From contig CBDCVK010000010.1 of NCBI GenBank assembly GCA_965223005.1, positions 489,322-553,321 on the forward strand: a stretch of 64,000 nucleotides of DNA, read 5' to 3'. Under the pieces are notes generated by a model. It saw only the letters and a program-made list of their open reading frames with translations, had not been told where the DNA came from and did not search any database. Of the stretch, positions 1 to 47,509 are shown piece after piece; the stretch's first letter is position 1; every line of letters starts with the position of its first letter. The position numbers and the translations under genes were made by a program. The DNA comes from Terriglobia bacterium. Its GTDB lineage: Bacteria > Acidobacteriota > Terriglobia > JAJPHL01 > JAPKYU01.

Positions 1-515
1 TGGTTTGCCCGGTGGCCGCCACCGTTCACAGCCAGGAAGGGCTCAACGAGATGGTTTACAACCGTTGTGTCGGCACCCGCTACTGCTCCAATAATTGTCC
101 CTACAAGGTCCGGCGCTTCAATTTCTTTGCATATTCGGATTACGAGACCCCCGTCCTGAAATTGCTGCGAAATCCGGACGTGACGGTACGAACCCGGGGA
201 GTCATGGAGAAGTGCACCTATTGTGTGCAGCGAATTAATGTAGCCCGCATCGAGGCAAAAAAAGAGGACCGCGAAATCCGGGACGGGGAAATCGTGACCG
301 CCTGCCAGGCAGCCTGTCCCGCGCAGGCCATTACTTTTGGCAATATCAATGACCCTAACAGCCAGGTATCCCAGCTTAAGGCAGACCCCCGAAATTACGG
401 TCTGCTCGAAGATTTAAACACCCGGCCGCGCACAACCTATCTGGCCCGACTGAGAAACCCTAATCCCGAGCTCGAAGGAAAAGGATGGAGCCCGAACAAC
501 CAGCACGGACGCTAG
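1..515 (+). CDS. actB: Alternative complex III subunit ActB (Fe-S / molybdopterin-oxidoreductase-like), C-terminal part; the gene begins upstream of the window
   Basis: The translation has 4Fe-4S ferredoxin-type Cys clusters ([29 protein letters not shown]). It is followed, with a 31-nt overlap, by an NrfD-like membrane subunit. The M at 12 is an ORF-caller artefact; the frame is open from base 1. Confidence 0.8.
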
Positions 516-1987
516 AAGGCGAACGTGCCCCACAGATCATCGCGCCGGGACACACCTATGCGTCGGTCACCGACAAGATCAGCGCCATTGTGCTCACCGG
601 GCGCACTCCGCGCGGCTGGTGGAGGCGCTCGGCTTCGGGGTGGCCTTTGCTCTGGTCATGGTTCTGCTGTATTCGGTGGCCTATCTACTGGCCGTGGGCA
701 CCGGCATCTGGGGGATCACCGGGCGCACTCCGCGCGGCGTTCGGCTTCGGGGTGGCCTTTGCTCTGGTCATGGTTCTGCTGTATTCGGTGGCCTATCTAC
801 TGGCCGTGGGCACCGGCATCTGGGGGATCAACGTTCCGGTCGGCTGGGGATTCGCCATCATCAACTTCGTCTGGTGGATCGGGATCGGGCATGCGGGCAC
901 TTTGATCTCAGCCATCCTGTTATTGCTGCGCCAGCAATGGCGAACCTCGATCAACCGTTTCGCCGAAGCCATGACGTTGTTCGCGGTCGCCTGTGCGGGA
1001 ATTTTTCCGCTCCTTCACATGGGGCGTCCGTGGCTCTTTTACTGGCTCATGCCTTACCCCAACACGATGGGGGTGTGGCCGCAGTTCCGCAGCCCGCTGG
1101 TCTGGGACGTGTTTGCTGTCACCACCTATGCCACCGTCTCGGCGTTGTTCTGGTTTGTGGGCCTGATCCCGGACTTTGCGACGCTGCGCGATCGCGCCGG
1201 CTCGCGGTTGGCTCAAGTCATCTACGGCGTGCTGGCGATGGGATGGCGAGGCTCGGCAAAGCACTGGCACCGCTATGAAACCGCCTACCTGCTTCTGGCC
1301 GGGCTCGCCACTCCTCTGGTGATCTCGGTGCACACCATTGTCAGTTTCGACTTTGCGATAGGCATCATTCCCGGCTGGCACGCCACCATTTTCCCTCCCT
1401 ATTTTGTGGCGGGCGCCATCTATGCGGGCTTTGCCATGGTCCTGACCCTGGCCATACCAGTCCGCGCCATCTATGGACTGCAGGATTTCATCACCATGCG
1501 GCACCTGGAGAACATGGCCAAAGTCATGTTGGCCACGGGCCTGATTGTCGCCTACGGCTACTTGATAGAAGCCTTCATGGCCTGGTATAGCGGGAATCGG
1601 TACGAACGGTACATGATTTTGAATCGGCTGAACGGTCCATACGCCAGTCATTACTGGGCGCTGCTGCTGTGCAACGTCGTGACCCCGCAGTTTCTCTGGT
1701 TTCGGCGAATCCGCACGAACGTGGTCACGCTGTTCCTGATCGCCATTGTGGTCGGCATCGGTATGTGGTTGGAGCGATTCATCATCGTTGTTACCAGCCT
1801 GCATCGGGACTTCTTGCCTTCCTCCTGGGGCATGTATGCCGGCACCCGCTGGGATTGGGCTACGTTTGCGGGTTCGATCGGCCTGTTTTTTGCCCTGCTG
1901 TTCTTGTTCGTCCGCTTCCTGCCAATGATTTCGATTTTCGAGATGCGGACTATCGTGCCGCGTTCGGAGGACCGGAGGAAGTCATGA
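485..1987 (+). CDS. actC: Alternative complex III subunit ActC (NrfD/PsrC-like polytopic membrane protein) carrying an internal imperfect tandem duplication
   Basis: The 500-aa ORF has conserved NrfD motifs ([32 protein letters not shown], many TM helices). Bases 595-716 and 717-828 are near-identical direct repeats. Confidence 0.8.
595..828 (+). repeat. Imperfect tandem direct repeat inside actC: copy 1 is 122 bp, copy 2 is 112 bp
   Basis: caccgggcgcactccgcgcgg...ggcatctgggggat occurs twice back to back. The copies differ only by ctggtggaggcgct versus cgtt. Copy 1 is read out of frame in the long ORF (Trp-rich [33 protein letters not shown]). Copy 2 encodes the conserved TM1 ([30 protein letters not shown]). 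Confidence 0.85.
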
Positions 1988-2015: not shown

Positions 2016-2561
2016 GTGCGCAGTATGAAGAAAGCGGCCCTTTACGGATTGATGGCTGAATTTGAGACTTCCGAGGCCGTGGTGGCTGCCGTACGCCGTG
2101 CTTACCAGGAGGGATACCGGCGGATGGATGCCTACACGCCCATGCCGGTTGAGGGATTGGCCGAAGAGTTCGGCTTCCATCATACGCGGCTGCCGCTCAT
2201 CGTTCTGCTCGGGGGGATTGCCGGAGGCGTTGGGGGATTCCTGTTGCAATACTACACGTCGGTGATCGACTTTCCCCTCAACGTGGGAGGCCGTCCCTTG
2301 AACAGTTGGCCCGCTTTCATCCCGATCACATTTGAGATGACCATTTTGGTTGCGGCATTGTCAGCAGTGCTCGGAATGTTGGCGCTCAACGGCCTTCCCA
2401 GGCCGTATCACCCGGTCTTCAACGTTTCTCGATTTGCGCTGGCCACACGGAACCGCTTCTTTCTGTGCGTCGAAGGCACCGATCCTAAATTTGACCTGGT
2501 TGCCACCAAGCGGTTCCTGGAGAGTTTAGGCCCGCGTGAGGTATCTGAAGTTGCGCCATAA
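2016..2561 (+). CDS. actD: Alternative complex III subunit ActD (DUF3341-like membrane protein)
   Basis: 181-aa ORF directly after actC with two predicted TM segments, in the conserved position in act operons. Confidence 0.7.
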   Translation: MRSMKKAALYGLMAEFETSEAVVAAVRRAYQEGYRRMDAYTPMPVEGLAEEFGFHHTRLPLIVLLGGIAGGVGGFLLQYYTSVIDFPLNVGGRPLNSWPAFIPITFEMTILVAALSAVLGMLALNGLPRPYHPVFNVSRFALATRNRFFLCVEGTDPKFDLVATKRFLESLGPREVSEVAP

Positions 2562-3171
2562 CACGATCCACTATCCGTGCGCGAACCATATTCCGGGAGG
2601 GGGCGTCCGGATTGGCCTGCTCGTCCTTTGTTCCCTTTTGCTGGGAGGGTGCCGCCAGGATATGCACGACCAGCCCAGGTTCGAGGCGCTGGAGGCCAGC
2701 ACGTTCTTCGAAGATGGCCAATCCGCGCGGCCGCTGATAGCCGGCACGGTGGCCCGCGGTCATTTGCGCAGAGATGAGCATTTCTACGCGGGGAAATCTG
2801 ACGGGGCCTTGGCCGATACCTTTCCCTTTCCAGTTAATCGTGAGGTCCTAGCGCGAGGCCGAGAACGTTTCGACATTTTTTGCTCACCTTGCCACGGTCG
2901 CGTGGGAGCCGGCCGGGGCATAGTCGTGCGACGAGGGTTTCGCTCGCCGCCGTCGTTTCACATCCCGCGGCTGCGCGAAGCTCCGGTAGGACATTTTTTC
3001 GACGCCATAACGAATGGCTTTGGCGGCATGGCTAGTTACGCGAGCCGGATTTCGCCTGAAGACCGCTGGGCGATTGTCGCCTACGTGCGCGCGCTCCAAT
3101 TGAGCCAGCACGCCACGCTGGCCGACGTTCCGTCAGAGCAACGTTCGGAACTCGTTGGGACCGCAGAATGA
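2536..3171 (+). CDS. actE: Alternative complex III subunit ActE, a monoheme cytochrome c that is probably a lipoprotein
   Basis: Single CxxCH haem-binding motif (CSPCH). N-terminal hydrophobic segment ending LLLGGC. The true start may lie a few codons downstream of 2536. Confidence 0.75.
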   Translation: MRYLKLRHNTIHYPCANHIPGGGVRIGLLVLCSLLLGGCRQDMHDQPRFEALEASTFFEDGQSARPLIAGTVARGHLRRDEHFYAGKSDGALADTFPFPVNREVLARGRERFDIFCSPCHGRVGAGRGIVVRRGFRSPPSFHIPRLREAPVGHFFDAITNGFGGMASYASRISPEDRWAIVAYVRALQLSQHATLADVPSEQRSELVGTAE

Positions 3172-4358
3172 ACGAATTCGAAACGCTCCGTCCCGAACTG
3201 GATCGCATTCGAAAGCAAGCGCTCGTGGTGGGCAGCGTGGCCTTGGGAGTCTGCATCGTAGGAGGCTTTCCCAACCCGGAGCAATTTTTCCGCTCCTACC
3301 TACTGGGCTACCTGTTCTGGATCGGAATCGCGCTGGGAAGCCTCGCCATCTTGATGCTGCACCACATGGTCGGCGGCGCGTGGGGTTTTGTGATCTGTCG
3401 CGCGCTCGAGTCCGCGACACGCACGCTGCCGCTGATGGGCTTGCTGCTCGTGCCACTACTGTTCGGCATCTACAAGTGGGGTGTAGTGTATAGCTGGGCG
3501 CGCCCCGAGGCAGTGGCTGCCGATGAACTCTTGCAACACAAGAGCCCTTACCTGAATGTCCCCTTTTTTTTCACTCGAGCGATCGTTTACTTCGCGATTT
3601 GGATCGCGATTGCCTACTTCTTGAATAAGTGGTCAGCCGAGCACGATCGAACTGCGGACGGCTCCTTTGTGCGTCGGCTTCAGATTCTCAGTGGGCCCGG
3701 ACTGCTGCTTTACGGGCTCACCGTATCGTTTGCTTTTGTGGACTGGGTCATGTCGTTGGAGCCGCATTGGTTCTCAACGGTTTACGGCGTCATGTTTATG
3801 ATCGGGCAGGCGCTGGGGGCGCTAGCCTTTGCCATCGGCGTGACCGCGCTGCTCGCCAAGCGCAAGCCTTTGTCGGACGTCGTCGAGGCCGGGCATTTTC
3901 ACGACCTGGGTAACCTCCTGCTGGCTTTCGTCATGCTGTGGGCCTACATCGCGTTTTCCCAATACTTGATTATCTGGTCGGGCAACCTGCCGGAGGAAAT
4001 TCCCTGGTATCTGCACCGCAGTTTGGGCGGCTGGCAATGGGTGGCGCTACTGTTGTTCCTTTTCCATTTTTGTTTGCCCTTTCTGGTGCTACTATCTCGC
4101 GTCGCGAAGCGCAGGGTACGAATCCTGGCCACGGTGGCGGCGGCCATGACCGTGATGCGTCTGGTGGATTTGTTCTGGCTGGTCGCGCCGGCATTCCATC
4201 CTACTGGGTTCAGCCTCCATTGGATGGATCTGGGGGCACCGGTCGGTATCGGAGGAATTTGGATAGCAGTGTTTGTTTGGCAACTGGGCAAGAGAGCCCT
4301 GCTGCCGGCGTATGACCCTCGTGTGAATGAAGAGATGGGGGTTGCTGAAGGCACTTGA
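3168..4358 (+). CDS. actF: Alternative complex III subunit ActF (second NrfD-like membrane subunit)
   Basis: 396-aa polytopic membrane protein, paralogous in architecture to ActC, overlapping the actE stop. Confidence 0.75.
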   Translation: MNEFETLRPELDRIRKQALVVGSVALGVCIVGGFPNPEQFFRSYLLGYLFWIGIALGSLAILMLHHMVGGAWGFVICRALESATRTLPLMGLLLVPLLFGIYKWGVVYSWARPEAVAADELLQHKSPYLNVPFFFTRAIVYFAIWIAIAYFLNKWSAEHDRTADGSFVRRLQILSGPGLLLYGLTVSFAFVDWVMSLEPHWFSTVYGVMFMIGQALGALAFAIGVTALLAKRKPLSDVVEAGHFHDLGNLLLAFVMLWAYIAFSQYLIIWSGNLPEEIPWYLHRSLGGWQWVALLLFLFHFCLPFLVLLSRVAKRRVRILATVAAAMTVMRLVDLFWLVAPAFHPTGFSLHWMDLGAPVGIGGIWIAVFVWQLGKRALLPAYDPRVNEEMGVAEGT

Positions 4359-5740: not shown

Positions 5741-6684
5741 ATGTGGGAAGGTTTTCCTTTATTCCCTGAACAGGCGTCCACCGTAGCGGGCGAAGTGGAC
5801 ATGCTGTTTTATTTCTTGATCGCAGTCAGTCTGTTTTTTACCGTTCTAATTTTCTCGCTGATCTTTTACTTCGCCATCCGCTACCGGAGACGCTCCGAGA
5901 CTGAACAGCCTCGTCCGATGGTCGGCTCCATCGGACTGGAGTTATTCTGGTCCATCACTCCGTTCATGATTACGGTGGTCATGTTTGTTTGGGCGACCAG
6001 CCTGTATTTCAAAAATGCCAGTCCTACGGCGGGAGCATTAGAGATCTATGTAGTTGCCAAGCAATGGATGTGGAAACTTCAGCATCCGGAGGGCCAGCGG
6101 GAAATCAACACTTTGCACGTGCCGATCGGCCGTCCCGTCCGTTTGATCATGACCTCCGAGGATGTTATCCACAGTTTTTACGTGCCTGCATTTCGGGTGA
6201 AATACGATGTATTGCCAGGACGGTACACAACCCTCTGGTTTGAGCCCACAAAAACCGGAGAATACCACTTGTTTTGCGCGGAATATTGTGGAACGAAACA
6301 TTCTCAGATGGCCGGTCGCGTCATCGTCATGACGCCACTGGAATTCGAGAAATGGCTGGGAGGGACCGCGACAGGAGAGTCGCTGGCAGAGGTTGGTCAG
6401 AGGTTGTTCCAGCGGCTCGGGTGCATTACCTGCCACCGCCCGGACGCGAGCGGACGCGGGCCCGTGCTGGAAGGTCTGTTCAACAAACCGGTGCCCTTGG
6501 CCACCGGAGAGACTGTGATCGCGGACGAGGACTACCTCCGGGAGTCGATCCTGCGGCCCAGCGCGAAAATGGTGGCTGGATACACCGTGAGAATGCCAAC
6601 CTTCCAGGGCCAGATCGGCGAGGAGGGGCTGGTGCAGATCATTGCCTTTATTAAATCTCTTAGTCGGGAAGTGCAAATCGAGGA

Positions 6685-11447: not shown

Positions 11448-11828
11448 CCATGTTAGCGGCGATGAGATGGAGTGAGCCCAAGTGATACGACCAGCAAGGG
11501 ATGACTCGATTCAACCGCTGTGCCAGGTGACACTGACGCACACCGAGTAATAAGGGGTTAGTTGGGCTTGGATGCCAGGGTCACGTCACAAAGTACGTCA
11601 CAATCGCCGGGCGCCATCACACCGCGCATGCGAGGCTTCCGGCTCGCTGGGATGCCGAGGGCCCTGATGGTACCAGCCCGAGCCGTTTCGTGGGCACCGT
11701 TTGCTATTGACCAAACCCGTCAAGGGGTTGACGGAGAGTGTCTCACCTTTAGTTGAAAGTCGAGCGGCGGTTCGCTGACCTGGTTCCGTAGAATCGGGTT
11801 GGGAAACTTTCTGGAAAGGGGAACCGCC

Positions 11829-11951: not shown

Positions 11952-13453
11952 TTAGCAGCCCGTGTCTAAAATCGCCAGATGGGGAAGAAACATGTTACTT
12001 CGGAAATGTTCTTACTTACAATCGGGCCATGGCCATGGGAACGCGCAAGCATCGTCAGCGACAAGAGCCGCTGTGGTATCGGGCAGAGTTGGCCGAGGCG
12101 CCCGGACACCCGTTCTACCGGCGGCTGCACCAACTGTTGGAGGAAGCCGATTTTGATCGATTCTGCGAGAGTCGGTGCCGGCAGTTCTACCACGAGCGGC
12201 TGGGCCGACCGTCGTTGCCGCCGGGGATGTACTTCCGGTTGATGCTGATCGGCTTCTTCGAGGGGATCGACAGCGAGCGAGGCATCGCCTGGCGGGTGGC
12301 CGATTCCTTGAGTTTGCGGCAGTTTTTGCAGATTGGGCTGGATGAACAGACGCCGGATCATGTGACGATCTCGCGCACGCGGCGGCTGATGGACGAGCCG
12401 ACGCACCAGGAAGTGTTTGGATGGGTGCTGCGGCTGGTGGCCGAACGGGGCCTGCTGAAGGGCAAGACGATCGGCATTGACGCCACCACGCTGGAAGCCA
12501 ACGCGGCCATGAGGTCGATCATGCGGCGGGACAGCGGGGAAAGCTATACGGAGTACCTGAAGCGGTTGGCGGAGGCCGAAGGGATCGAAGCCCAGGATGC
12601 AGCGGCGCTGCGGAGGATGGACCGCTGCCGACCGAAGAAGATGTCCAATGCGAAGTGGGTGAACCCACATGATCGGGAAGCGGAGATCACCCGGATGAAG
12701 GACGGGCGCACGGCACTGGCTTACAAGGCCGAGCATGCGGTGGACATGGAGACTGGGGCGATTGTGGCGCTGACGGCGCACGGGGGAGCGACCGGCGACA
12801 CGGAATCGGTTCAGCAGACCCTGCCGGCGGCCGGCGCGGCGGTGGGCGAGCAGATCGCGACACCCACGGCCGAAGGGGAGTTTGTGGTGAACGCAGACGG
12901 GGTGGAAGAGGTGGTGGCCGACAAGGGGTATCACAGTGGGGAAGTGCTGGCAGAGATGCAGGCGATGGAGGTGCGGACCTACATTGCGGAGCCGGAGCGG
13001 GGACGGCGGCAATGGACGGGCAAGGAAGAGCAGAAGGCGGCGGTCTACCGCAATCGGCGGCGGGTGACGGGGCAGCGAGGGAAGGCGCTGCTGCGGAAAC
13101 GTGGGGAGATGCTGGAGCGTCCGTTTGCGCACATGTATGAGACGGGCAGGATGAGACGCTTGTATGTCCGTGGGAAGATAAACGTGCAAAAGAAACTGTT
13201 GCTGCAGGCAGCAGCCTGCAACCTGGCGCTAGTTTTGCGCCAGCTGCTGGGGGCGGGAACCCCGCGAGGCCTGCAAGACCGCATCACCGAGCTGTTTTTG
13301 CTCGTTTTCTGGATCACTGCCACAAGAATGGCCCACCCCGAATCCCCCACGCCCCTATCCTGGTGCAACGGTCAAATTCACGGCTTTGCTCTTCACTTGC
13401 CCCGCCTGAAAAAGAGGCCGGCCCAAAGGCCGGTTTAGACACGGGCTGTTAGC
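11951..13453 (+). mobile_element. IS1182/IS5-superfamily insertion sequence (about 1.5 kb) nested inside the IS256-family transposase gene
   Basis: Terminal inverted repeats GTTAGCAGCCCGTGTCTAAA (11951-11970) and TTTAGACACGGGCTGTTAGC (13434-13453), 18/20 matching. It encloses a 469-aa DDE transposase. Confidence 0.75.
12029..13438 (+). CDS. IS1182-family (IS5 superfamily) DDE transposase
   Basis: 469 aa. Motifs typical of IS1182 transposases: FYRRLHQLL, GIDATTLEANAA, DKGYHSGE, ERPFAHMYETGRMRRLYVRG...NVQKKLLLQAAACNL. Confidence 0.85.
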   Translation: MAMGTRKHRQRQEPLWYRAELAEAPGHPFYRRLHQLLEEADFDRFCESRCRQFYHERLGRPSLPPGMYFRLMLIGFFEGIDSERGIAWRVADSLSLRQFLQIGLDEQTPDHVTISRTRRLMDEPTHQEVFGWVLRLVAERGLLKGKTIGIDATTLEANAAMRSIMRRDSGESYTEYLKRLAEAEGIEAQDAAALRRMDRCRPKKMSNAKWVNPHDREAEITRMKDGRTALAYKAEHAVDMETGAIVALTAHGGATGDTESVQQTLPAAGAAVGEQIATPTAEGEFVVNADGVEEVVADKGYHSGEVLAEMQAMEVRTYIAEPERGRRQWTGKEEQKAAVYRNRRRVTGQRGKALLRKRGEMLERPFAHMYETGRMRRLYVRGKINVQKKLLLQAAACNLALVLRQLLGAGTPRGLQDRITELFLLVFWITATRMAHPESPTPLSWCNGQIHGFALHLPRLKKRPAQRPV

Positions 13454-14615
13454 CGTCGACGAGCTGATCGACGTGGTGGGTAGGGCGGCGATTGAAGCGG
13501 TGCTGGAGTTGTCGGCCGCGCAGGTGGCCGGTCCACGCCGTCAGGGCCGGCGGCGCCGTGGGGTAGGCTGGTATGGGCGCCAGCGGGGACGGGTGCGCCT
13601 GAAGGAGAGAAAGCTGGCCGTGCACAGGCCACGGCTCCGGCGGCCAGGCCGGGGAGCGGGGAAAGAAGTTCCCCTCCCGGCCTACGAAGCCATGCAGGAG
13701 GGCGAGGGTCTGGGGGCCCGGATGTTGGATATCTTGCTGCGGGGCGTCTCGACCCGGCAGTACCAGCGGGTGTTGCCGGAGATGGCGGACACCGTGGGTG
13801 TGTCGCGCTCCACGGTCAGCCGGGAAACGATGGAGGCTGCCGCAGCCGAGTTAGAACGTCTGTTGAACCGCCGCTTCGAGGAAGTAGAGTTGCTGATCCT
13901 CTACATCGACGGGATGGTGTTTGGCGACCATCACGTGATTGCGGCTGTGGGCGTGGATGCGGAAGGGCACAAGCACGTGCTGGGGATTCAGGAGGGGGCT
14001 ACGGAGAACGCCGCGGCCGTCCAGGACTTGCTGGAAGGTTTAGTGCGGCGAGGGGTGCAGCCGGCCCAGAAACGGCTGTTTGTGATCGACGGCTCGAAGG
14101 CCTTGCGGGCGGCGATCCGCGCCGTGTTCGGGGCCGAGCAGCCGGTGCAGCGCTGCCGCGCCCACAAGTTGCGCAACGTCCTGGACCGGTTGCCGGAGCC
14201 AGAGCGGGACCAGGTGCGGGCGGCGATGCGGGCCGCCTGGCGGTTGGATCCGAAGACCGGCAGGGCCAAGCTGGAGAAGTTGGCCCAATGGTTGGAGCGA
14301 GATTGTCCGGCCGCGGCGGCCAGCTTGCGGGAGGGTCTGGAGGAATGTTTCACCATCAACCGGCTGGGGCTTCCGGCTTCGCTGCATCGCTGTCTGGCCA
14401 CCACCAATCTCATCGAGAGTCCGCAGGCGGGAGTGAGGTTGCGAACTCGCCGGGTGTGCCGCTGGCGGGATGCGGCCATGGTCCAGCGCTGGGTCGCCTC
14501 CAGCTTCCTGGCCACGGAGAAAAACTTCCGCCGCCTGATGGGGTACCAGGACCTGTGGATGTTGAAAGCGATCCTCGAAGGATCAAAGTCGGCCACTCGA
14601 CGGGAGGTGGCGTAG
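13452..14615 (+). CDS. IS256-family (Mutator-like) transposase, main C-terminal portion; 5' end separated by the nested IS
   Basis: VDELIDVVGRAAIEAVLELSA..RRGVGWYGRQRGRVRLKERKLAVHRPRLR...LILYIDGMVF...QRCRAHKLRNVLDRLPE, typical of IS256/Mutator transposases. The frame is open from 13410; the ORF track starts it at 13473. Confidence 0.8.
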   Translation, partial: AVDELIDVVGRAAIEAVLELSAAQVAGPRRQGRRRRGVGWYGRQRGRVRLKERKLAVHRPRLRRPGRGAGKEVPLPAYEAMQEGEGLGARMLDILLRGVSTRQYQRVLPEMADTVGVSRSTVSRETMEAAAAELERLLNRRFEEVELLILYIDGMVFGDHHVIAAVGVDAEGHKHVLGIQEGATENAAAVQDLLEGLVRRGVQPAQKRLFVIDGSKALRAAIRAVFGAEQPVQRCRAHKLRNVLDRLPEPERDQVRAAMRAAWRLDPKTGRAKLEKLAQWLERDCPAAAASLREGLEECFTINRLGLPASLHRCLATTNLIESPQAGVRLRTRRVCRWRDAAMVQRWVASSFLATEKNFRRLMGYQDLWMLKAILEGSKSATRREVA

Positions 14616-14672
14616 TATGATGGCTCCGAACCGCCGCTACGAACTTTCAACTGAGTTCAGGACACCCTCGTT

Positions 14673-14825
14673 GGCCTGGCTGGTCAACTTGGCCACTTGG
14701 CGGCGGTGCCGGCAGTCCTCCACGTCCAGCTCGTGCAATCCGTGCTGCTGCGCCAGCAAGTCCAGCGCTGTGTCGTCGGGGTCCGCAAGGTGAATCCAGG
14801 GGACGCCGGGAAACGGTTCCGCCAT
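14673..14825 (-). pseudogene. corA: N-terminal fragment (about 50 codons) of a CorA-type Mg2+/Co2+ transporter, truncated by the IS256-family insertion
   Basis: MAEPFPGVPWIHLADPDDTALDLLAQQHGLHELDVEDCRHRRQVAKLTSQAN matches the conserved CorA N-domain segment (WIxLxxPxxEE..L...FGLHxLxxED...xxQRPKxExxxN). The reading then runs into the IS terminal repeat. No GMN-motif C-terminal part is present. Confidence 0.6.
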
Positions 14826-14868
14826 GGCTAGCTCTCAATCAATGGGATTTCCAACGCCCGTAGTCTAG

Positions 14869-16208
14869 CAGGATGCTGAAAAAGTCCCTGGGCGACCTCT
14901 TACGAACAAAATATAAATGAGTATAATTGTTCTCATTATGCGAGGACACGATCTGCACCAAGACGCGATGTTCAGCTACCTGAGCCCCGAGCAACGGGTG
15001 CCCCAGGATCATCCGTTGCGGCCGATACGCCGCATGACCGACCAAGCACTGCAACGGCTTTCGCCGCGGTTCGAGCGGATGTATGCTGACATCGGTCGCC
15101 CCTCGATCGCCCCGGAGAAGCTGCTGCGGGCCTTGCTGCTGCAGGTGCTCTACACCATCCGCAGCGAACGGATGCTGCTGGAGCAACTCGATTACAACCT
15201 CCTGTTCCGGTGGTTTGTGGGACTGAACATGGATGACGCGGTGTGGGTGCCGACGGTGTTCAGCAAGAACCGGGACCGGCTGCTGGAGGGGGCCGTCGCC
15301 GAGGCATTCTTTGACGAGGTGTTGCGCGAGGCGGGCGAGCAGGAGTTGCTGTCGGAGGAGCACTTCACGGTGGACGGGACGCTGCTGGAGGCGTGGGCGA
15401 GCCAGAAGAGCTTTCAGAGGAAGGACGCGCCGGAGGGGCCGCCGCCGGAGGATCCGGGCAATCCCACGGTGGACTTCCACAAAGAGAAGCGGACCAACGA
15501 AACGCACCAGTCGACGACAGACCCGGACGCTCGGCTGGCCCGGAAGGGCAAAGGCAAGGAGGCCAAGCTGAGCTACGTCGGGCACGTGCTGATGGAGAAC
15601 CGCAACGGGCTGGTGGTGAATGTGCGGCTGACCCAGGCCACCGGCACCGCCGAGCGGGAAGCGGCCGTGGAGATGGTGGACGACATTCCGGGCCCGAAGC
15701 AGGTGACGGTGGGTGCCGACAAGAACTACGACGCCGAAGCGATGGTGCAGCAGTTGCGGGAACGGAAGGCCACGCCGCACGTGGCGCAGAACCAGGAACG
15801 GCGGCGCAGTGCCATCGACAGCCGGACCACACGGCACCCGGGTTACCAGATCAGCCAGAGAGCGCGGAAGAAGGTGGAAGAGAGTTTCGGATGGATGAAG
15901 ACGGTCGGGTTGCTGCGGAAGCTGCGGCATCGGGGCCTGGAGCGCGTCGGCTGGATCTTCACCTTTACGGCTGCCGCCTTCAACCTGGTCCGGATTCGCA
16001 ACTTGGTGATCGGGGCCGTCCCGCCGCGGGTAGTGGGCCCAGGGGCCGCCTGAGGAGGAGTGTGTCCAAAGGACGAAAAAGGGCTGGGAAAGGCAAAAGA
16101 CAAGGCCCCAAAGGGCCAATAGCGAGGTTCACTACGAACCGAACGGCTCAAAGAAAATTCCCACAGGATAAACGCTACTGAATTTTTTGGCCCTTTTTCA
16201 GCACCCTG
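14869..16208 (+). mobile_element. IS5-family insertion sequence (1340 bp) flanked by a 4-bp CTAG target-site duplication (14865-14868 and 16209-16212)
   Basis: Terminal inverted repeats CAGGATGCTGAAAAAGTCCC (14869-14888) and GGGCCCTTTTTCAGCACCCTG (16189-16208), 17/20 matching. CTAG lies directly outside both ends. It encloses a 378-aa IS5-type transposase. Confidence 0.75.
14917..16053 (+). CDS. IS5-family DDE transposase (InsH-like N-terminal domain)
   Basis: MFSYLSPEQRVPQDHPLRPIR...PEKLLRALLLQVLYTIRSERMLLEQLDYNLLFRWFVGL (DUF772/InsH N-terminus), FTVDGTLLEAWAS, GADKNYD, and a C-terminal ...FNLVRIRNL. Confidence 0.85.
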   Translation: MSIIVLIMRGHDLHQDAMFSYLSPEQRVPQDHPLRPIRRMTDQALQRLSPRFERMYADIGRPSIAPEKLLRALLLQVLYTIRSERMLLEQLDYNLLFRWFVGLNMDDAVWVPTVFSKNRDRLLEGAVAEAFFDEVLREAGEQELLSEEHFTVDGTLLEAWASQKSFQRKDAPEGPPPEDPGNPTVDFHKEKRTNETHQSTTDPDARLARKGKGKEAKLSYVGHVLMENRNGLVVNVRLTQATGTAEREAAVEMVDDIPGPKQVTVGADKNYDAEAMVQQLRERKATPHVAQNQERRRSAIDSRTTRHPGYQISQRARKKVEESFGWMKTVGLLRKLRHRGLERVGWIFTFTAAAFNLVRIRNLVIGAVPPRVVGPGAA

Positions 16209-31090: not shown

Positions 31091-31185
31091 TGGCGGAAGG
31101 TTATGGGAATCGAACCCATCGCTGCTCGTGAGAAACAGCCACCGGCTTTGAAGGCCGGGCGAGTCACCAGACCCGATTACCTTCC
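31091..31185 (-). tRNA. selC: Selenocysteine tRNA (tRNA-Sec), anticodon UCA
   Basis: 95-nt minus-strand tRNA GGAAGGTAATCGGGTCTGGTGACTCGCCCGGCCTTCAAAGCCGGTGGCTGTTTCTCACGAGCAGCGATGGGTTCGATTCCCATAACCTTCCGCCA. It has an 8-bp acceptor stem, a 6-bp D-stem with 4-nt loop (CGGGTC/TGGT/GACTCG), a CUUCAAA anticodon loop, a long variable arm, a 5-bp T-stem with TTCGATT loop, G discriminator and encoded CCA. This is the bacterial tRNA-Sec 8/5 architecture, strongly similar to E. coli selC. Confidence 0.85.
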
Positions 31186-31229: not shown

Positions 31230-33704
31230 TCAACGGGAGGCAGTCCGTTCCAGAGCCCGCTCGGTGTACCGATACACCAGGTGGTTGGTGCATACTTCGT
31301 AGTAGCGTCGCTGGGTGTACTCCTTCAAGCTGAAGGAGTGGGCATCCACAAAGGGAATCTGCGCTTCGCGCACCACCAGCCGCTGGAACACCTCGTTGGG
31401 CAAGGGGAAGGCACCACAGTGCAGCGTCACCTTTTCCGGCTGCCAGAGCAAGGGCATTTCCAGCTCGACCGGCTGGAGCGAAATCTCCTCTTGCAGTTTG
31501 TCAAACGCCTCCTCGCTCAGGCAAATCCCGGTGTTGTAGCGGACCAGGAACTCTTCCATGGCGCCTGCGGCGGCCTCTTCGGTGATGGTCTGGAACACGA
31601 ACGCCCGGAAGAGCGACTGCTTGCTGTCCAGCGCGCGGCGGGCCAGCTTGCTGCACCCGCTGAGCCGGTCGGCCAGGTTGATGGCCGAGGAGATCATGAT
31701 CCGGGTCTCGCCGTCCAGCAGGTACATGGGCGTCGAGTTCTGCCAGCAGATTCCGATGCCAATCTCCAGCCGCGGCAAGTCCGCCTTCTCGGCCCTCGCA
31801 TTGTATTGCTCGACCACGGCCATGATCTCCCGCGCCAAGCCACAGGCTCGGGCCACGGGATAACCGCCCAGCGCCGCACCTTGTTTCTCGAACATTGCCA
31901 GAATCACCGCGTCGCCCTCAATGAACACCTTCTCACCGGCGTACTTGGGCAGCAGCTTGTTCAGCGGTTCGTAAAAGTTCAGACTGAAGTGGCTGGCCGG
32001 ATTCAGGCCGCGGGCGAACAGGTCGGCGGTGAGCCGGGTGGAGTCACGCACGTCGGCTTTCAGAATCACGTGGCCTAGTATCTGTTCGCCCTGCGGCTTG
32101 TCCTCCGCCGGCAGCAGGAACTCGTACAGGGTGTTGTTGATTCGGGAAAGCTGCCGGGTTTTTTCCTCAAACAGCAGGTTGACCCGCTCCATCAGGCCTT
32201 GCAGGGCCTGTAGCAGGCAATTGTCGCGGTGGTGCCGCAGGAAATCGCGAACGAAGCGAACGAGAAAGGCGCGGAGGTCACGTGGTTGATAGGTACGCAC
32301 TCGAGCGGCGGCCTCTTCCAGAGTGGCTACGCTGGCCCGGGTCAGCTTGTAATGCGTGATCAGGTCGGCCACCTTCTTGAGTTCGGAAGGGTCCAGGAGG
32401 GCGCGTTTCAGTTGCTGCGGATGGATCGGCGGGCAGTAGTCCTGGTAGACGTTCGCCGTCTCGTAGGCGGCGGCGAAGCAGGGCAATAGCCCCAACTGCT
32501 GCGCTGCGTTATAAAATTCATCAACTAGCTGGCGCTGGATCTCTAGCCTTTCCTTCAGGGCGCTCAGTTCTTTCCGCGGTGCCTTTCGCGACTGCGCCTC
32601 AGCCAGCAGTTGCTCGGTGCGCACAGTACCGAGCAGCTGCTCCACATTTTCGGGGACGTTGAGCATCTCCGTCAGGTGCGCGTCATAGGCTTCCGTCGAC
32701 AGCCGCAGTTGTTCGGCCGACTGCCTCAGTTGTCTCTCCGGCTCCTCTAGGCGCCCCGCAAGATCGGGAGAGGCCGGAGACGGGGTCTCGGGGCGGGGAC
32801 CGAAGAGGCGTCCCAATCCCAATCCCAGCCCGCGCTCGGGAGGCTGGAGCTGGTCGCGCAAAGATGAGGTCCGGCTGGCCAATTGGTGATGCTCCTGCTG
32901 ACGGGTCTCCAGCTCACGCGCCTCCGGTCCGACTGCGTCCACCCCCTTGAGCATGGACTTCAGCCAGCGCTCCACGGATTCGTACAGGTCCGGGTCGCGG
33001 TGGAAGTTGCCCAACATGACGTACTTGGTTAGCTGAATGTAATCGTCACGGCCGGTTTCGGTGAACACCAGCGGGTGAGAAAAGTAAGTGAACCAGGGAC
33101 TGGCTTCGTCGCCGAAAAAGGATTCGCGCGTCTTGCGGACCACACCAGCCTGCACTTCGTTAGCCAGCGACAGTAATTCATTCGAAACGCGTCGGAAGAC
33201 GTTCTTCTTGTCGGCCTGAAACTCGCTGAAGATTTCCTTCAGTTGGAAGGCGCGCAAGTTCCGATCGTGGCGCGGCCCTTCATACATCCGCAGCTTGTTC
33301 TTGCCCTCCATCTGGATGCGGCCGTACTGTTGCTGCACTTCCCAGCTCAGGTACTTGAAGAGGGCGACGTTTCCCAATAGGTCGATGTCGGGGTTGCGCG
33401 CCTCCTTGGCGTGGCTGAGCGCACTGAGCAGTACCTCCTGCAACAGACGCTTGAATTCGTTGCGCTCCTGCGGCTTGGGCGGGCCCGGGTTCTGCTCCGC
33501 CAGTTCAGGCGCGCGGCTGTGCTTCATAAAGAGCTTGAGAATGTAGCCCCCGGTGAAGCCGATGAAGCGGGAGCTCAGGTGGACGTCGTGGCGGACGTTG
33601 TCCACGCCCGGCACTAGCGATGGAAAGCGCAGGTCCGGTGCGGACCCGACGAGGTGAACCGCTGCATATACGCGTTCCGGGCTGGAACGGGAGAACAGCG
33701 GCAT
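31230..33704 (-). CDS. Large cytoplasmic protein with a C-terminal class III adenylate/guanylate cyclase-like catalytic domain and an uncharacterised ~580-aa N-terminal region
   Basis: C-terminal ILKADVRDSTRL...EGDAVILAMF...LEIGIGI...ISSAINLADRL follows the CHD cyclase pattern (FADIxGFT...GDA...IGI..G.......G..VNLAARL). The N-terminus is not recognised. Confidence 0.6.
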   Translation of the reverse strand: MPLFSRSSPERVYAAVHLVGSAPDLRFPSLVPGVDNVRHDVHLSSRFIGFTGGYILKLFMKHSRAPELAEQNPGPPKPQERNEFKRLLQEVLLSALSHAKEARNPDIDLLGNVALFKYLSWEVQQQYGRIQMEGKNKLRMYEGPRHDRNLRAFQLKEIFSEFQADKKNVFRRVSNELLSLANEVQAGVVRKTRESFFGDEASPWFTYFSHPLVFTETGRDDYIQLTKYVMLGNFHRDPDLYESVERWLKSMLKGVDAVGPEARELETRQQEHHQLASRTSSLRDQLQPPERGLGLGLGRLFGPRPETPSPASPDLAGRLEEPERQLRQSAEQLRLSTEAYDAHLTEMLNVPENVEQLLGTVRTEQLLAEAQSRKAPRKELSALKERLEIQRQLVDEFYNAAQQLGLLPCFAAAYETANVYQDYCPPIHPQQLKRALLDPSELKKVADLITHYKLTRASVATLEEAAARVRTYQPRDLRAFLVRFVRDFLRHHRDNCLLQALQGLMERVNLLFEEKTRQLSRINNTLYEFLLPAEDKPQGEQILGHVILKADVRDSTRLTADLFARGLNPASHFSLNFYEPLNKLLPKYAGEKVFIEGDAVILAMFEKQGAALGGYPVARACGLAREIMAVVEQYNARAEKADLPRLEIGIGICWQNSTPMYLLDGETRIMISSAINLADRLSGCSKLARRALDSKQSLFRAFVFQTITEEAAAGAMEEFLVRYNTGICLSEEAFDKLQEEISLQPVELEMPLLWQPEKVTLHCGAFPLPNEVFQRLVVREAQIPFVDAHSFSLKEYTQRRYYEVCTNHLVYRYTERALERTASR

Positions 33705-34460: not shown

Positions 34461-35006
34461 TCATCCCCCGGCAGACAGACGACTGCAAACCGCATAGGCG
34501 CCGTTGGGGTCAATCGCGCTCCCGCCTTTCTCGATGTGGCGAATGATCCCCTGCTTATCCACCACGAAGGTGACCCGCAGAGCGAAGTTGCGCTCGGGAT
34601 CCAGAATCCCGTATTTCTTGCTGACCTCGCGCATGAAGTCGCTCAGAAGCGGAAACTTCACCCCGAGGTCTTCGGCGTAACGACGATTGGCGTAAGAGCT
34701 ATCCACGCTGATGCCCAGCACCTGCGAGCCGGTCTTTTCGAATTTGGCGATATCATCCTGATACGCCTTCAGTTCCTTCGTTCAACCACCCGTGAATGCC
34801 AGGACGTAGAAGGCCAGTACCACATTCTTCTTCCCCTTGAAATCGCTCAACCGGACCGGCTTGTTGTTCTGATCCGGAAGCGTGAAATCGGGCGCGGAAT
34901 CGCCTACTTTCAGATGGGTCATGACGTCGGGTGGCGGCTGAGCCGGGGCCAGACTGAGTGGCGCGGGCAGAATCAAAGCCAGTGCCAAAGCTGTTCGACA
35001 AACCAT
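34461..35006 (-). CDS. Exported PrxQ/Bcp-type peroxiredoxin with an in-frame UGA (34782-34784) at the peroxidatic Cys position: predicted selenocysteine-containing peroxiredoxin
   Basis: ORFs 34782-35183 and 34461-34721 are in the same frame, separated only by TGA. Read through, the sequence is ...VVLAFYVLAFTGG-U-TKELKAYQDDIAKFEKTGSQVLGISVDS..., matching the Prx motif FYP.DFTPGCTxE with Sec replacing Cys. Signal peptide MVCRTALALALILPAPLSLAPAQ. A SECIS-like hairpin follows the UGA, and selC lies 3.3 kb away. Confidence 0.7.
34746..34767 (-). promoter_or_regulatory. SECIS-like hairpin in the mRNA 15 nt downstream of the in-frame UGA
   Basis: mRNA: UGA acgaaggaacugaa GGCGUAUC AGGAU GAUAUCGCC. 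This is a GC-clamped stem with one bulged U and an apical loop containing GG/U. Spacing and shape are like bacterial SECIS elements. Confidence 0.45.
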
Positions 35007-35522
35007 ACGCCTACCTCCAGTTTCTTGCAATTTCGGGATTTGCACAGGATTCCGTCGATGCGCTCGTTCCTTGCACGACCCCCGAATTATGTACCCAAAT
35101 CCTGGCTTCGTCCAGTTTTTGGTAGCGGACACTCCACTGCGGCGAGGGTCCTGCAGCGGCGGTGGGAGTCCACGGCTTTCCATCTTGACACCACGAGGAC
35201 CCGAAGCTAGGATGCGCCTACACGAGAAAGGAGGTGGTCGATGTTGCAGGATCCATTATGTAGGCCCCGTGAGGTGGTCGCGCCTTAGGGCGGAATTTGC
35301 CTCAGAGCCGTCGTGTTTTCTTTCTGCTTGCCTGTGGCTGTAGAATTCCGCCTCAGGTACTCTTACGCGGCTACCGGCGCCGGGCAGGAGGGGTTGGCCC
35401 TTCGGCCCGGCGTTTCGCTTCTATCAGGGTGCTGAAAATTAGCGACTGGATCCGCTCAGAACCGTTTTCTGACGCCCGCAGTTCCTTAACTGTAACCACT
35501 TGTCAAGCCGCAACCCACTGAT

Positions 35523-47020: not shown

Positions 47021-47509
47021 GTGGAGCACATGATGGCGATCGACTATCGGCAGGAGGAAGACAGCGAGATGGAAGAGCTGGGGTTAGGCTCCCAACACGA
47101 GGAAGAAGCGGAGGGGGAAACACTGGAACAAGAAGTGATCGGCGGCGTGCCTGAGCTGTTCCCACCTGTTCCCGTGCCTCTGCCAGCGCCGGCCGCTCCG
47201 GCACCCCCAAGGGTCCGGAGGGCAACGAAGAAGCCGGCCCGCAGGCCAGCCAGGAGAAAGCCGGCCCGCAGGCCAGCCAGGAGAAAGCCGGCCCGCAGGC
47301 CAGCCAGGAGAAAGCCGGCTCGCAGGCCAGCCAGGAGAAAGCCGGCTCGCAGGCCAGCCAGGAGAAAGCCGGCTCGCAGGCCAGCCAGGAGAAAGCCAGC
47401 CCGCAGGCCGGCCAGGAGAAAGCCAGCCCGCAGGCCGGCCAGGAGAAAGTCGGCTAGAGCCAGACCCAAGAGGAGGGCGAAGGCCAAGAAAATCCGGCGG
47501 CGGCGCTAG
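47021..47509 (+). CDS. Histone H1-like / AlgP-like basic protein: acidic N-terminal domain plus C-terminal (KPARRPARR)x8 repeats
   Basis: 162 aa. The N-terminus is rich in E/D (EEDSEMEEL...HEEEAEGETLEQE). A PVPLPAPAAPAPP linker follows. Then 8 copies of KPARRPARR and a KRRAKAKKIRRRR tail. Confidence 0.7.
   Translation: MEHMMAIDYRQEEDSEMEELGLGSQHEEEAEGETLEQEVIGGVPELFPPVPVPLPAPAAPAPPRVRRATKKPARRPARRKPARRPARRKPARRPARRKPARRPARRKPARRPARRKPARRPARRKPARRPARRKPARRPARRKSARARPKRRAKAKKIRRRR
47231..47446 (+). repeat. 8 x 27-bp in-frame tandem repeat AAGCCGGCCCGCAGGCCAGCCAGGAGA (minor variants)
   Basis: Read directly from the sequence. Encodes KPARRPARR x8. Confidence 0.85.

Follow-up and report, generated by a model that had tools for sequence, protein, structure and literature searches.

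Does the actC gene of this Terriglobia bacterium carry a second, imperfect copy of its TM1-coding segment in the living cell, or did the copy enter the sequence during assembly? The question concerns the beginning of the window, i.e. the whole 64,000-nt stretch of DNA analysed here, which starts inside the operon for Alternative Complex III (ACIII). As written, actC is an open reading frame of 500 aa (485-1987, + strand) encoding the NrfD/PsrC-type membrane subunit of the complex, as judged from the ORF list and from Pfam (NrfD PF03916, E 2.1e-22, residues 118-439). It is preceded by the 3′ end of actB (12-515, +), with Fer4 / 4Fe-4S domains in Pfam, and followed by actD and actE (2016-3171, +). 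ActD, at 2016-2561, matches Pfam ActD PF11821 (E 9e-68), and ActE, at 2536-3171, is a c-type cytochrome (Pfam Cytochrome_CBB3), which confirms the operon as that of ACIII. The same order, actB-actC-actD-actE, is found in loci L085 and L087 of a sister assembly described below, where SCO1, COX2, COX1 and COX3 come next; that is, SCO1 and the genes of a caa3-type oxidase lie downstream of the operon.

The repeat in actC and the restored protein

A repeat search of the window recovered two pairs of direct repeats in actC, 624-721 versus 736-833 (98 nt, 98% identical, spacing 112) and 594-616 versus 716-738 (23 nt, 100% identical, spacing 122), and TRF reported the same imperfect repeat with a period of 112, 1.8 copies, 98% matches and a score of 407. 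This is the sole long-period tandem repeat within the 64 kb. A different type of repeat, a 27-nt unit present 8.3 times (96% matches) at 47231-47454, lies inside an ORF at 47021-47509 (+), where it encodes (KPARRPARR)n; the 162-aa product has an acidic N-terminus, a very basic tail and no Pfam match.

In actC, copy 1 (594-715, +, 122 nt) starts with the native TGRTPRGWW codons in frame, after which a 5-nt filler puts the TM1 codons off frame. Copy 2 (716-827, +, 112 nt) has its TGRTPRG codons off frame and has lost the WW codons, and its TM1 codons are in the native frame. What distinguishes the two copies is TGGTGGAGGC (617-626), an indel of 10 nt flanked by the common CGCGGC and GYTCGGCTTC, together with a C at 628 versus a T at 740. 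The junction between them, as read from the sequence, is clean, with a microhomology of three nucleotides, TCA, at 716-718 (+) that is also present at 594-596 and 828-830. The earlier note had described a tandem duplication of the TM1-coding segment in actC of the ACIII operon, with copy 1 read off frame and copy 2 in frame within the 500-aa ORF, and an aberrant insertion of roughly 40 aa. The repeat search and TRF agree with this description, as does the reading of the ORF; the gene identity is upheld by Pfam, by the gene lists of the sister assemblies and by alignments to solved chains, and the insertion measures 39 aa in the homologue alignment. Its further point, that removing either copy whole (122 or 112 nt) leaves a frameshift, is true when the deletion is done literally.

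What the note had overlooked is that the lengths of the copies (122 + 112 = 234) sum to exactly twice 117. Alignments with the sister loci L085 and L086 and with relatives, together with excision of the block, place the extra DNA relative to the single-copy allele at 624-740 (+), i.e. 117 nt or 39 codons. The block begins with GGCGC, continues through the TM1 segment as far as GGGGATCA, and closes with CCGGGCGCACTCCGCGCGGC followed by GT. The filler GGCGC (624-628, +) follows TGGTGGA in copy 1 and is absent in the single-copy allele. In copy 2, at the site that corresponds to this filler, TGGTGGA has given way to GT (739-740, +), which removes 5 nt net. The edges of the insertion, 624 and 741, are 117 nt apart, and the duplication is equivalent to a perfect 117-nt copy plus two changes that fall on corresponding positions of the two copies. 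A second source for the filler bases GGTGGAGGCGCTCGGC and CGCGGCGTTCGGCTTC was sought in the window and in the related loci, and none was found.

Excising exactly 624-740 gives a 461-aa ActC reading TPRGWWIGFGVAF, with no base correction needed. The native reading at the site is TPRGWW-I-GFGVAF. In all 13 homologues aligned at this site a single residue separates WW from GFG, the pattern being TPRGW followed by W, F, Y or L, then exactly one residue (I, V, L or F), then GFG. This canonical one-residue spacing of WW/F and GFG at the start of TM1 is lost in the window ORF, where 40 residues intervene, and is regained once 624-740 is removed. At the DNA level, the two nearest relatives (L001-L004) read CG[A]GGCTGGTGG-[G/A]T[T/C]-GGCTTCGGG, and the window differs from them here by a single 117-nt block between TGGTGGA (617-623) and TCGGCTTC (from 741). 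The earlier note had looked to a single copy with a 1-nt correction to restore the protein. Such a repair is ruled out by the WW-[I/V/L/F]-GFG spacing of the homologues and by the sufficiency of the clean 117-nt excision, and the residues AL and AF are derived from filler bases.

Along its whole length the restored protein can be aligned with the solved ActC chains 8k9e_C, 6lod_C, 6f0k_C and 6btm_C (E 3e-200 to 1e-158), the best match being 8k9e_C (E 2.9e-200, residues 3-458), and its operon context is also that of ActC. The single-copy gene is thus an ordinary, canonical ACIII actC. Compared with these chains and with the homologues, the window ORF is longer by 39 residues, inserted after Trp46 in the interval from the conserved WW to GFG; the four solved structures lack them. 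The best 120 homologues have lengths of 445-479 aa. When these and the cluster members (131 proteins in total) were aligned pairwise to the restored sequence, residues 25-110 showed no gap in 127 proteins and a 1-aa deletion in two, one protein was partial, and the 39-aa insertion was present only in the window's own protein. Homologues with a similar insert, to which the earlier note had pointed as an argument for a genuine allele, did not turn up: 129 of the 130 other proteins cover the site, none with an insertion, the remaining one being the partial sequence. Furthermore, neither the 20-mer nor the 32-mer spanning the junction had a match in JGI metagenome contigs or in GTDB species-representative genomes. 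A protein-based scan of the GTDB representatives returned relatives of at most 79% identity among the best 80 loci, and the representative of the species was not among these.

Sister assemblies of the same clone

Exact protein look-up found the restored 461-aa form (P0121) on two public contigs from other samples, and the 500-aa form (P0122) on one contig only (1,670,323 bp). The contigs carrying P0121 are ctg245954_19x_l of assembly ERZ25072076 (3.13 Mb; loci L085 and L087) and ctg836337_37x_l of ERZ25067264 (1.55 Mb; loci L086, L088 and L089). A three-way alignment of the window, L085 and L086 over ~7 kb contained zero substitutions, and the differences amounted to two blocks, one of 117 nt and one of 125 nt. 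The 117-nt block is private to the window and is its only difference in actC from L085 and L086, whereas the 125-nt block, in actB, is private to ERZ25067264. Over ~18 kb the sister contigs have no mismatch to the window, L087 diverging from ~11733. ERZ25067264 could be followed along window positions 1-38,586, with no mismatch over 17.6 kb and then 4 SNPs over ~21 kb more, in addition to one homopolymer indel and one 44-nt insertion. Such near-zero mismatch counts between the window and the P0121 contigs indicate that all three come from the same clone. By this sequence comparison, the window, ERZ25072076 and ERZ25067264 are one clone, and both sisters have a single copy of the TM1-coding segment.

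The homopolymer difference (window position 14668) is CCC in the window and CCCC in ERZ25067264, a difference typical of long-read consensus error, and it points to long-read consensus data. Contig names such as ctg245954_19x_l, i.e. of the form ctgN_covx_l, are in what we take to be metaMDBG style, which would likewise point to long-read data.

ERZ25067264 has untidy insertions of its own. The 125-nt block in actB (L086 4492-4616, corresponding to L088 ~3385-3506; window ~100/101), itself a messy local duplication, divides actB of ERZ25067264 into 896 + 117 aa. It consists of window 51-67, AAAT, window 65-132 and 37 nt identical to window 12257-12293, a stretch 12 kb away that belongs to a transposase gene. 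The 44-nt insertion, AAGGTCAGTGCCGACAGCGGCTACTTTCGCTTGGAGACCATCAG (L089 ~5858-5901, reverse-complement coordinates 15408-15451; window ~32729), splits an 824-aa ORF (window 31230-33704) into 332 + 478 aa, and this ORF is intact in the window and in ERZ25072076; an origin for the 44 nt was sought in the window and the related loci, and none was found. With the actC block the insertions number three. None occurs in more than one assembly, they are spread over two of the three assemblies, and two of them break conserved genes.

Some further features of the region are recorded here in their own right. A cluster of transposase genes at 12029-16053 (DUF772/DDE_Tnp_1, 469 aa; Transposase_mut, 380 aa; DDE, 378 aa) is common to the window and ERZ25067264. 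In ERZ25072076, where the divergence of L087 starts at ~11733, the same position is occupied by a molybdopterin oxidoreductase gene, a HigB/HTH pair and a TIR-domain gene, and the 824-aa gene lies ~450 kb from actC, against ~31 kb in the window. The difference near 11733 reflects an IS-associated rearrangement between strains or else a misjoin. The 824-aa ORF itself (31230-33704, -) has no Pfam family match, is intact in two of the three assemblies and adjoins a tRNA-Sec gene (anticodon TCA; 31091-31185, -). At a distance of 3.3 kb from this tRNA lies a gene for an AhpC/TSA peroxiredoxin (34461-35183, -), one continuous frame with an in-frame TGA (~34781-34783) where the peroxidatic Cys is expected, in the context AFYVLAFTGG-TGA-TKELKAYQDD. 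Gene calling in the sister assemblies has divided it into two (74 + 81 aa). With the TGA read as Cys, the product matches the full AhpC-TSA profile (1-124/124, E 1e-39); the folding of the sequence after the TGA does not stand out (z -1.5) and does not establish a SECIS. Going by its sequence, the gene probably encodes a selenocysteine peroxiredoxin rather than carrying a frameshift.

Origin of the extra 117 nucleotides

The earlier note had left two possibilities, an artefact of assembly or consensus and a genuine duplication with an indel. We favour the first, and the homologues and the two single-copy assemblies speak against the second. With a probability of roughly 0.8, the block at 624-740 is a false tandem duplication created during the assembly or polishing of a long-read metagenome and is not part of the organism's genome. 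Several observations lead to this reading. Excision gives P0121 verbatim, while P0122 sits on one contig only; two megabase contigs of the same clone are single-copy; none of the 129 other proteins covering the site, nor any of the four solved structures, has the insertion; and ERZ25067264 carries private, untidy insertions of the same kind (125 nt and 44 nt). Moreover, the arrangement of the lesions is informative. Two 5-nt indels and the base differences at the lesions separate the copies within a span of 234 nt, as compared with 4 SNPs in ~38 kb between the window and the sister clone. Two lesions that are one period apart and at the same homologous position match the two edges of an alignment gap and not a single slippage event.

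One possible course of events would be the following. A period of ~117 nt too many may have entered the draft contig, at a place where co-occurring relatives have nearly the same sequence. True single-copy reads would then align to the draft by opening a gap of that length, the bases under the gap would escape correction during polishing, and the consensus would be garbled at both edges of the gap, with GGCGC added at 624-628 and TGGTGGA turned into GT at 739-740. As the length happens to be a multiple of three and the off-frame copy is stop-free by chance, a gene caller would deliver an intact 500-aa protein with a meaningless, Trp-rich insert of 39 aa. Near-identical actB and actC stretches do occur in related species of the same samples (L003, L004), and one may speculate that they could tangle the assembly graph. 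That the block is an artefact is the most likely interpretation of the sequence comparison, and an assembler may have produced its filler bases in the manner proposed here.

Faults of this type have precedents. Long-read metagenome assemblers have been reported to generate false duplications and indels without read support, as well as haplotype chimeras (10.1101/2025.04.22.649783), and the metaMDBG authors describe how base-space sequence is rebuilt from segments of raw reads, along with a fault in their racon-like polishing of 500-bp windows (PMC13087279). The closest known cases are the false duplications and haplotyping chimeras of Trigodet et al. (10.1101/2025.04.22.649783), together with the polishing fault of metaMDBG/nanoMDBG (PMC13087279). 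The actC block resembles them in being a direct repeat confined to one assembly in otherwise identical sequence, in its spurious ORF product, in the presence of assembly-private indels and insertions, and in its occurrence on megabase contigs with errors of long-read style. The examples of Trigodet et al. are, however, for the most part longer repeats, with a lower counting limit of 200 bp, and were recognised by the clipping of reads, whereas the actC repeat is 117 nt long and is described at the sequence level.

Two features do not fit an artefact so readily. First, the junction between the copies is clean and has the TCA microhomology that a genuine slippage duplication would have. Second, the net length is a multiple of three and the ORF is open. 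The second point weighs little, as about a third of insertion lengths are divisible by three, 27% of 39-codon windows are stop-free in the off-frame used here, and in simulations that inserted local segments, ~24% of the cases left the ORF readable as far as the native stop. The open frame is thus within chance, at roughly 10-25% of cases. This chance level suffices, and the open frame as a sign of selection is ruled out.

The same two features are also arguments for a genuine and very recent complex mutation in the sampled population or subpopulation, namely a tandem duplication of 117 nt arising by template switching with short filler insertions, which we consider unlikely. Besides the clean TCA junction and the preserved frame, it can be said for this scenario that a minority haplotype supported by few reads is sometimes what long-read assemblers report (10.1101/2025.04.22.649783). 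Nor would the mutation have to add a membrane helix, since the Kyte-Doolittle hydropathy of the insert peaks at only 0.64, as compared with about 2.5 for TM1; an extra helix that flips the topology of the protein is for this reason not claimed here. However, the likeness to replication slippage is confined to the head-to-tail arrangement of the copies and their clean junction with its 3-nt microhomology. Slippage that has just occurred leaves perfect copies and a single new junction, whereas both actC copies have a 5-nt lesion at corresponding sites, and other assemblies of the same clone do not have the duplication. A genuine mutation would thus have to combine a duplication with two 5-nt indels at homologous positions on a background of only 4 SNPs in ~38 kb, and be absent from both same-clone assemblies, from every homologue covering the site, and from the JGI metagenome contigs and GTDB species-representative genomes in which its junction was sought. 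The junk insertions of the sister assembly in conserved genes, one of them with DNA from 12 kb away, point to a technical process instead. If the allele were nevertheless genuine, the 39 nonsense residues in front of TM1 would probably leave actC impaired or null.

Tandem duplications can revert by recombination, and this, together with the open ORF, is what can be said for a functional feature, either an on/off switch of ACIII resembling phase variation or programmed frameshifting past the insert to give a normal or TM1-duplicated protein, a very improbable idea given that no relative conserves the repeat, that slippery-site logic fails because no pair of frames gives a sensible product (copy 2 is without the WW codons and copy 1 has 5 extra nt), that the single-copy gene, once restored, lacks nothing of a canonical actC, and that the open frame is at chance level.

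Consequences for the deposited sequences and for the organism

If the block at 624-740 is a false duplication, as we think, the finding is chiefly of value for quality control. The deposited MAG protein P0122 (500 aa) would hold 39 meaningless residues, and because its ORF is open, checks for frameshifts and pseudogenes would miss the insert. The private insertions in the sister assemblies, where actB and another gene are split, mean that validation at the level of reads is needed before unusual gene structures in these assemblies are interpreted. Should the duplication be real instead, it would be of modest interest as a case of complex duplication in a respiratory gene that looks essential. 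In that case, and as a one-step template-switch event, which appears quite improbable, it would mean that the cells either tolerate a Trp/Pro-rich loop of 39 residues before TM1 of a quinol-oxidising ACIII subunit or carry a freshly inactivated ACIII that could be regained by recombination.
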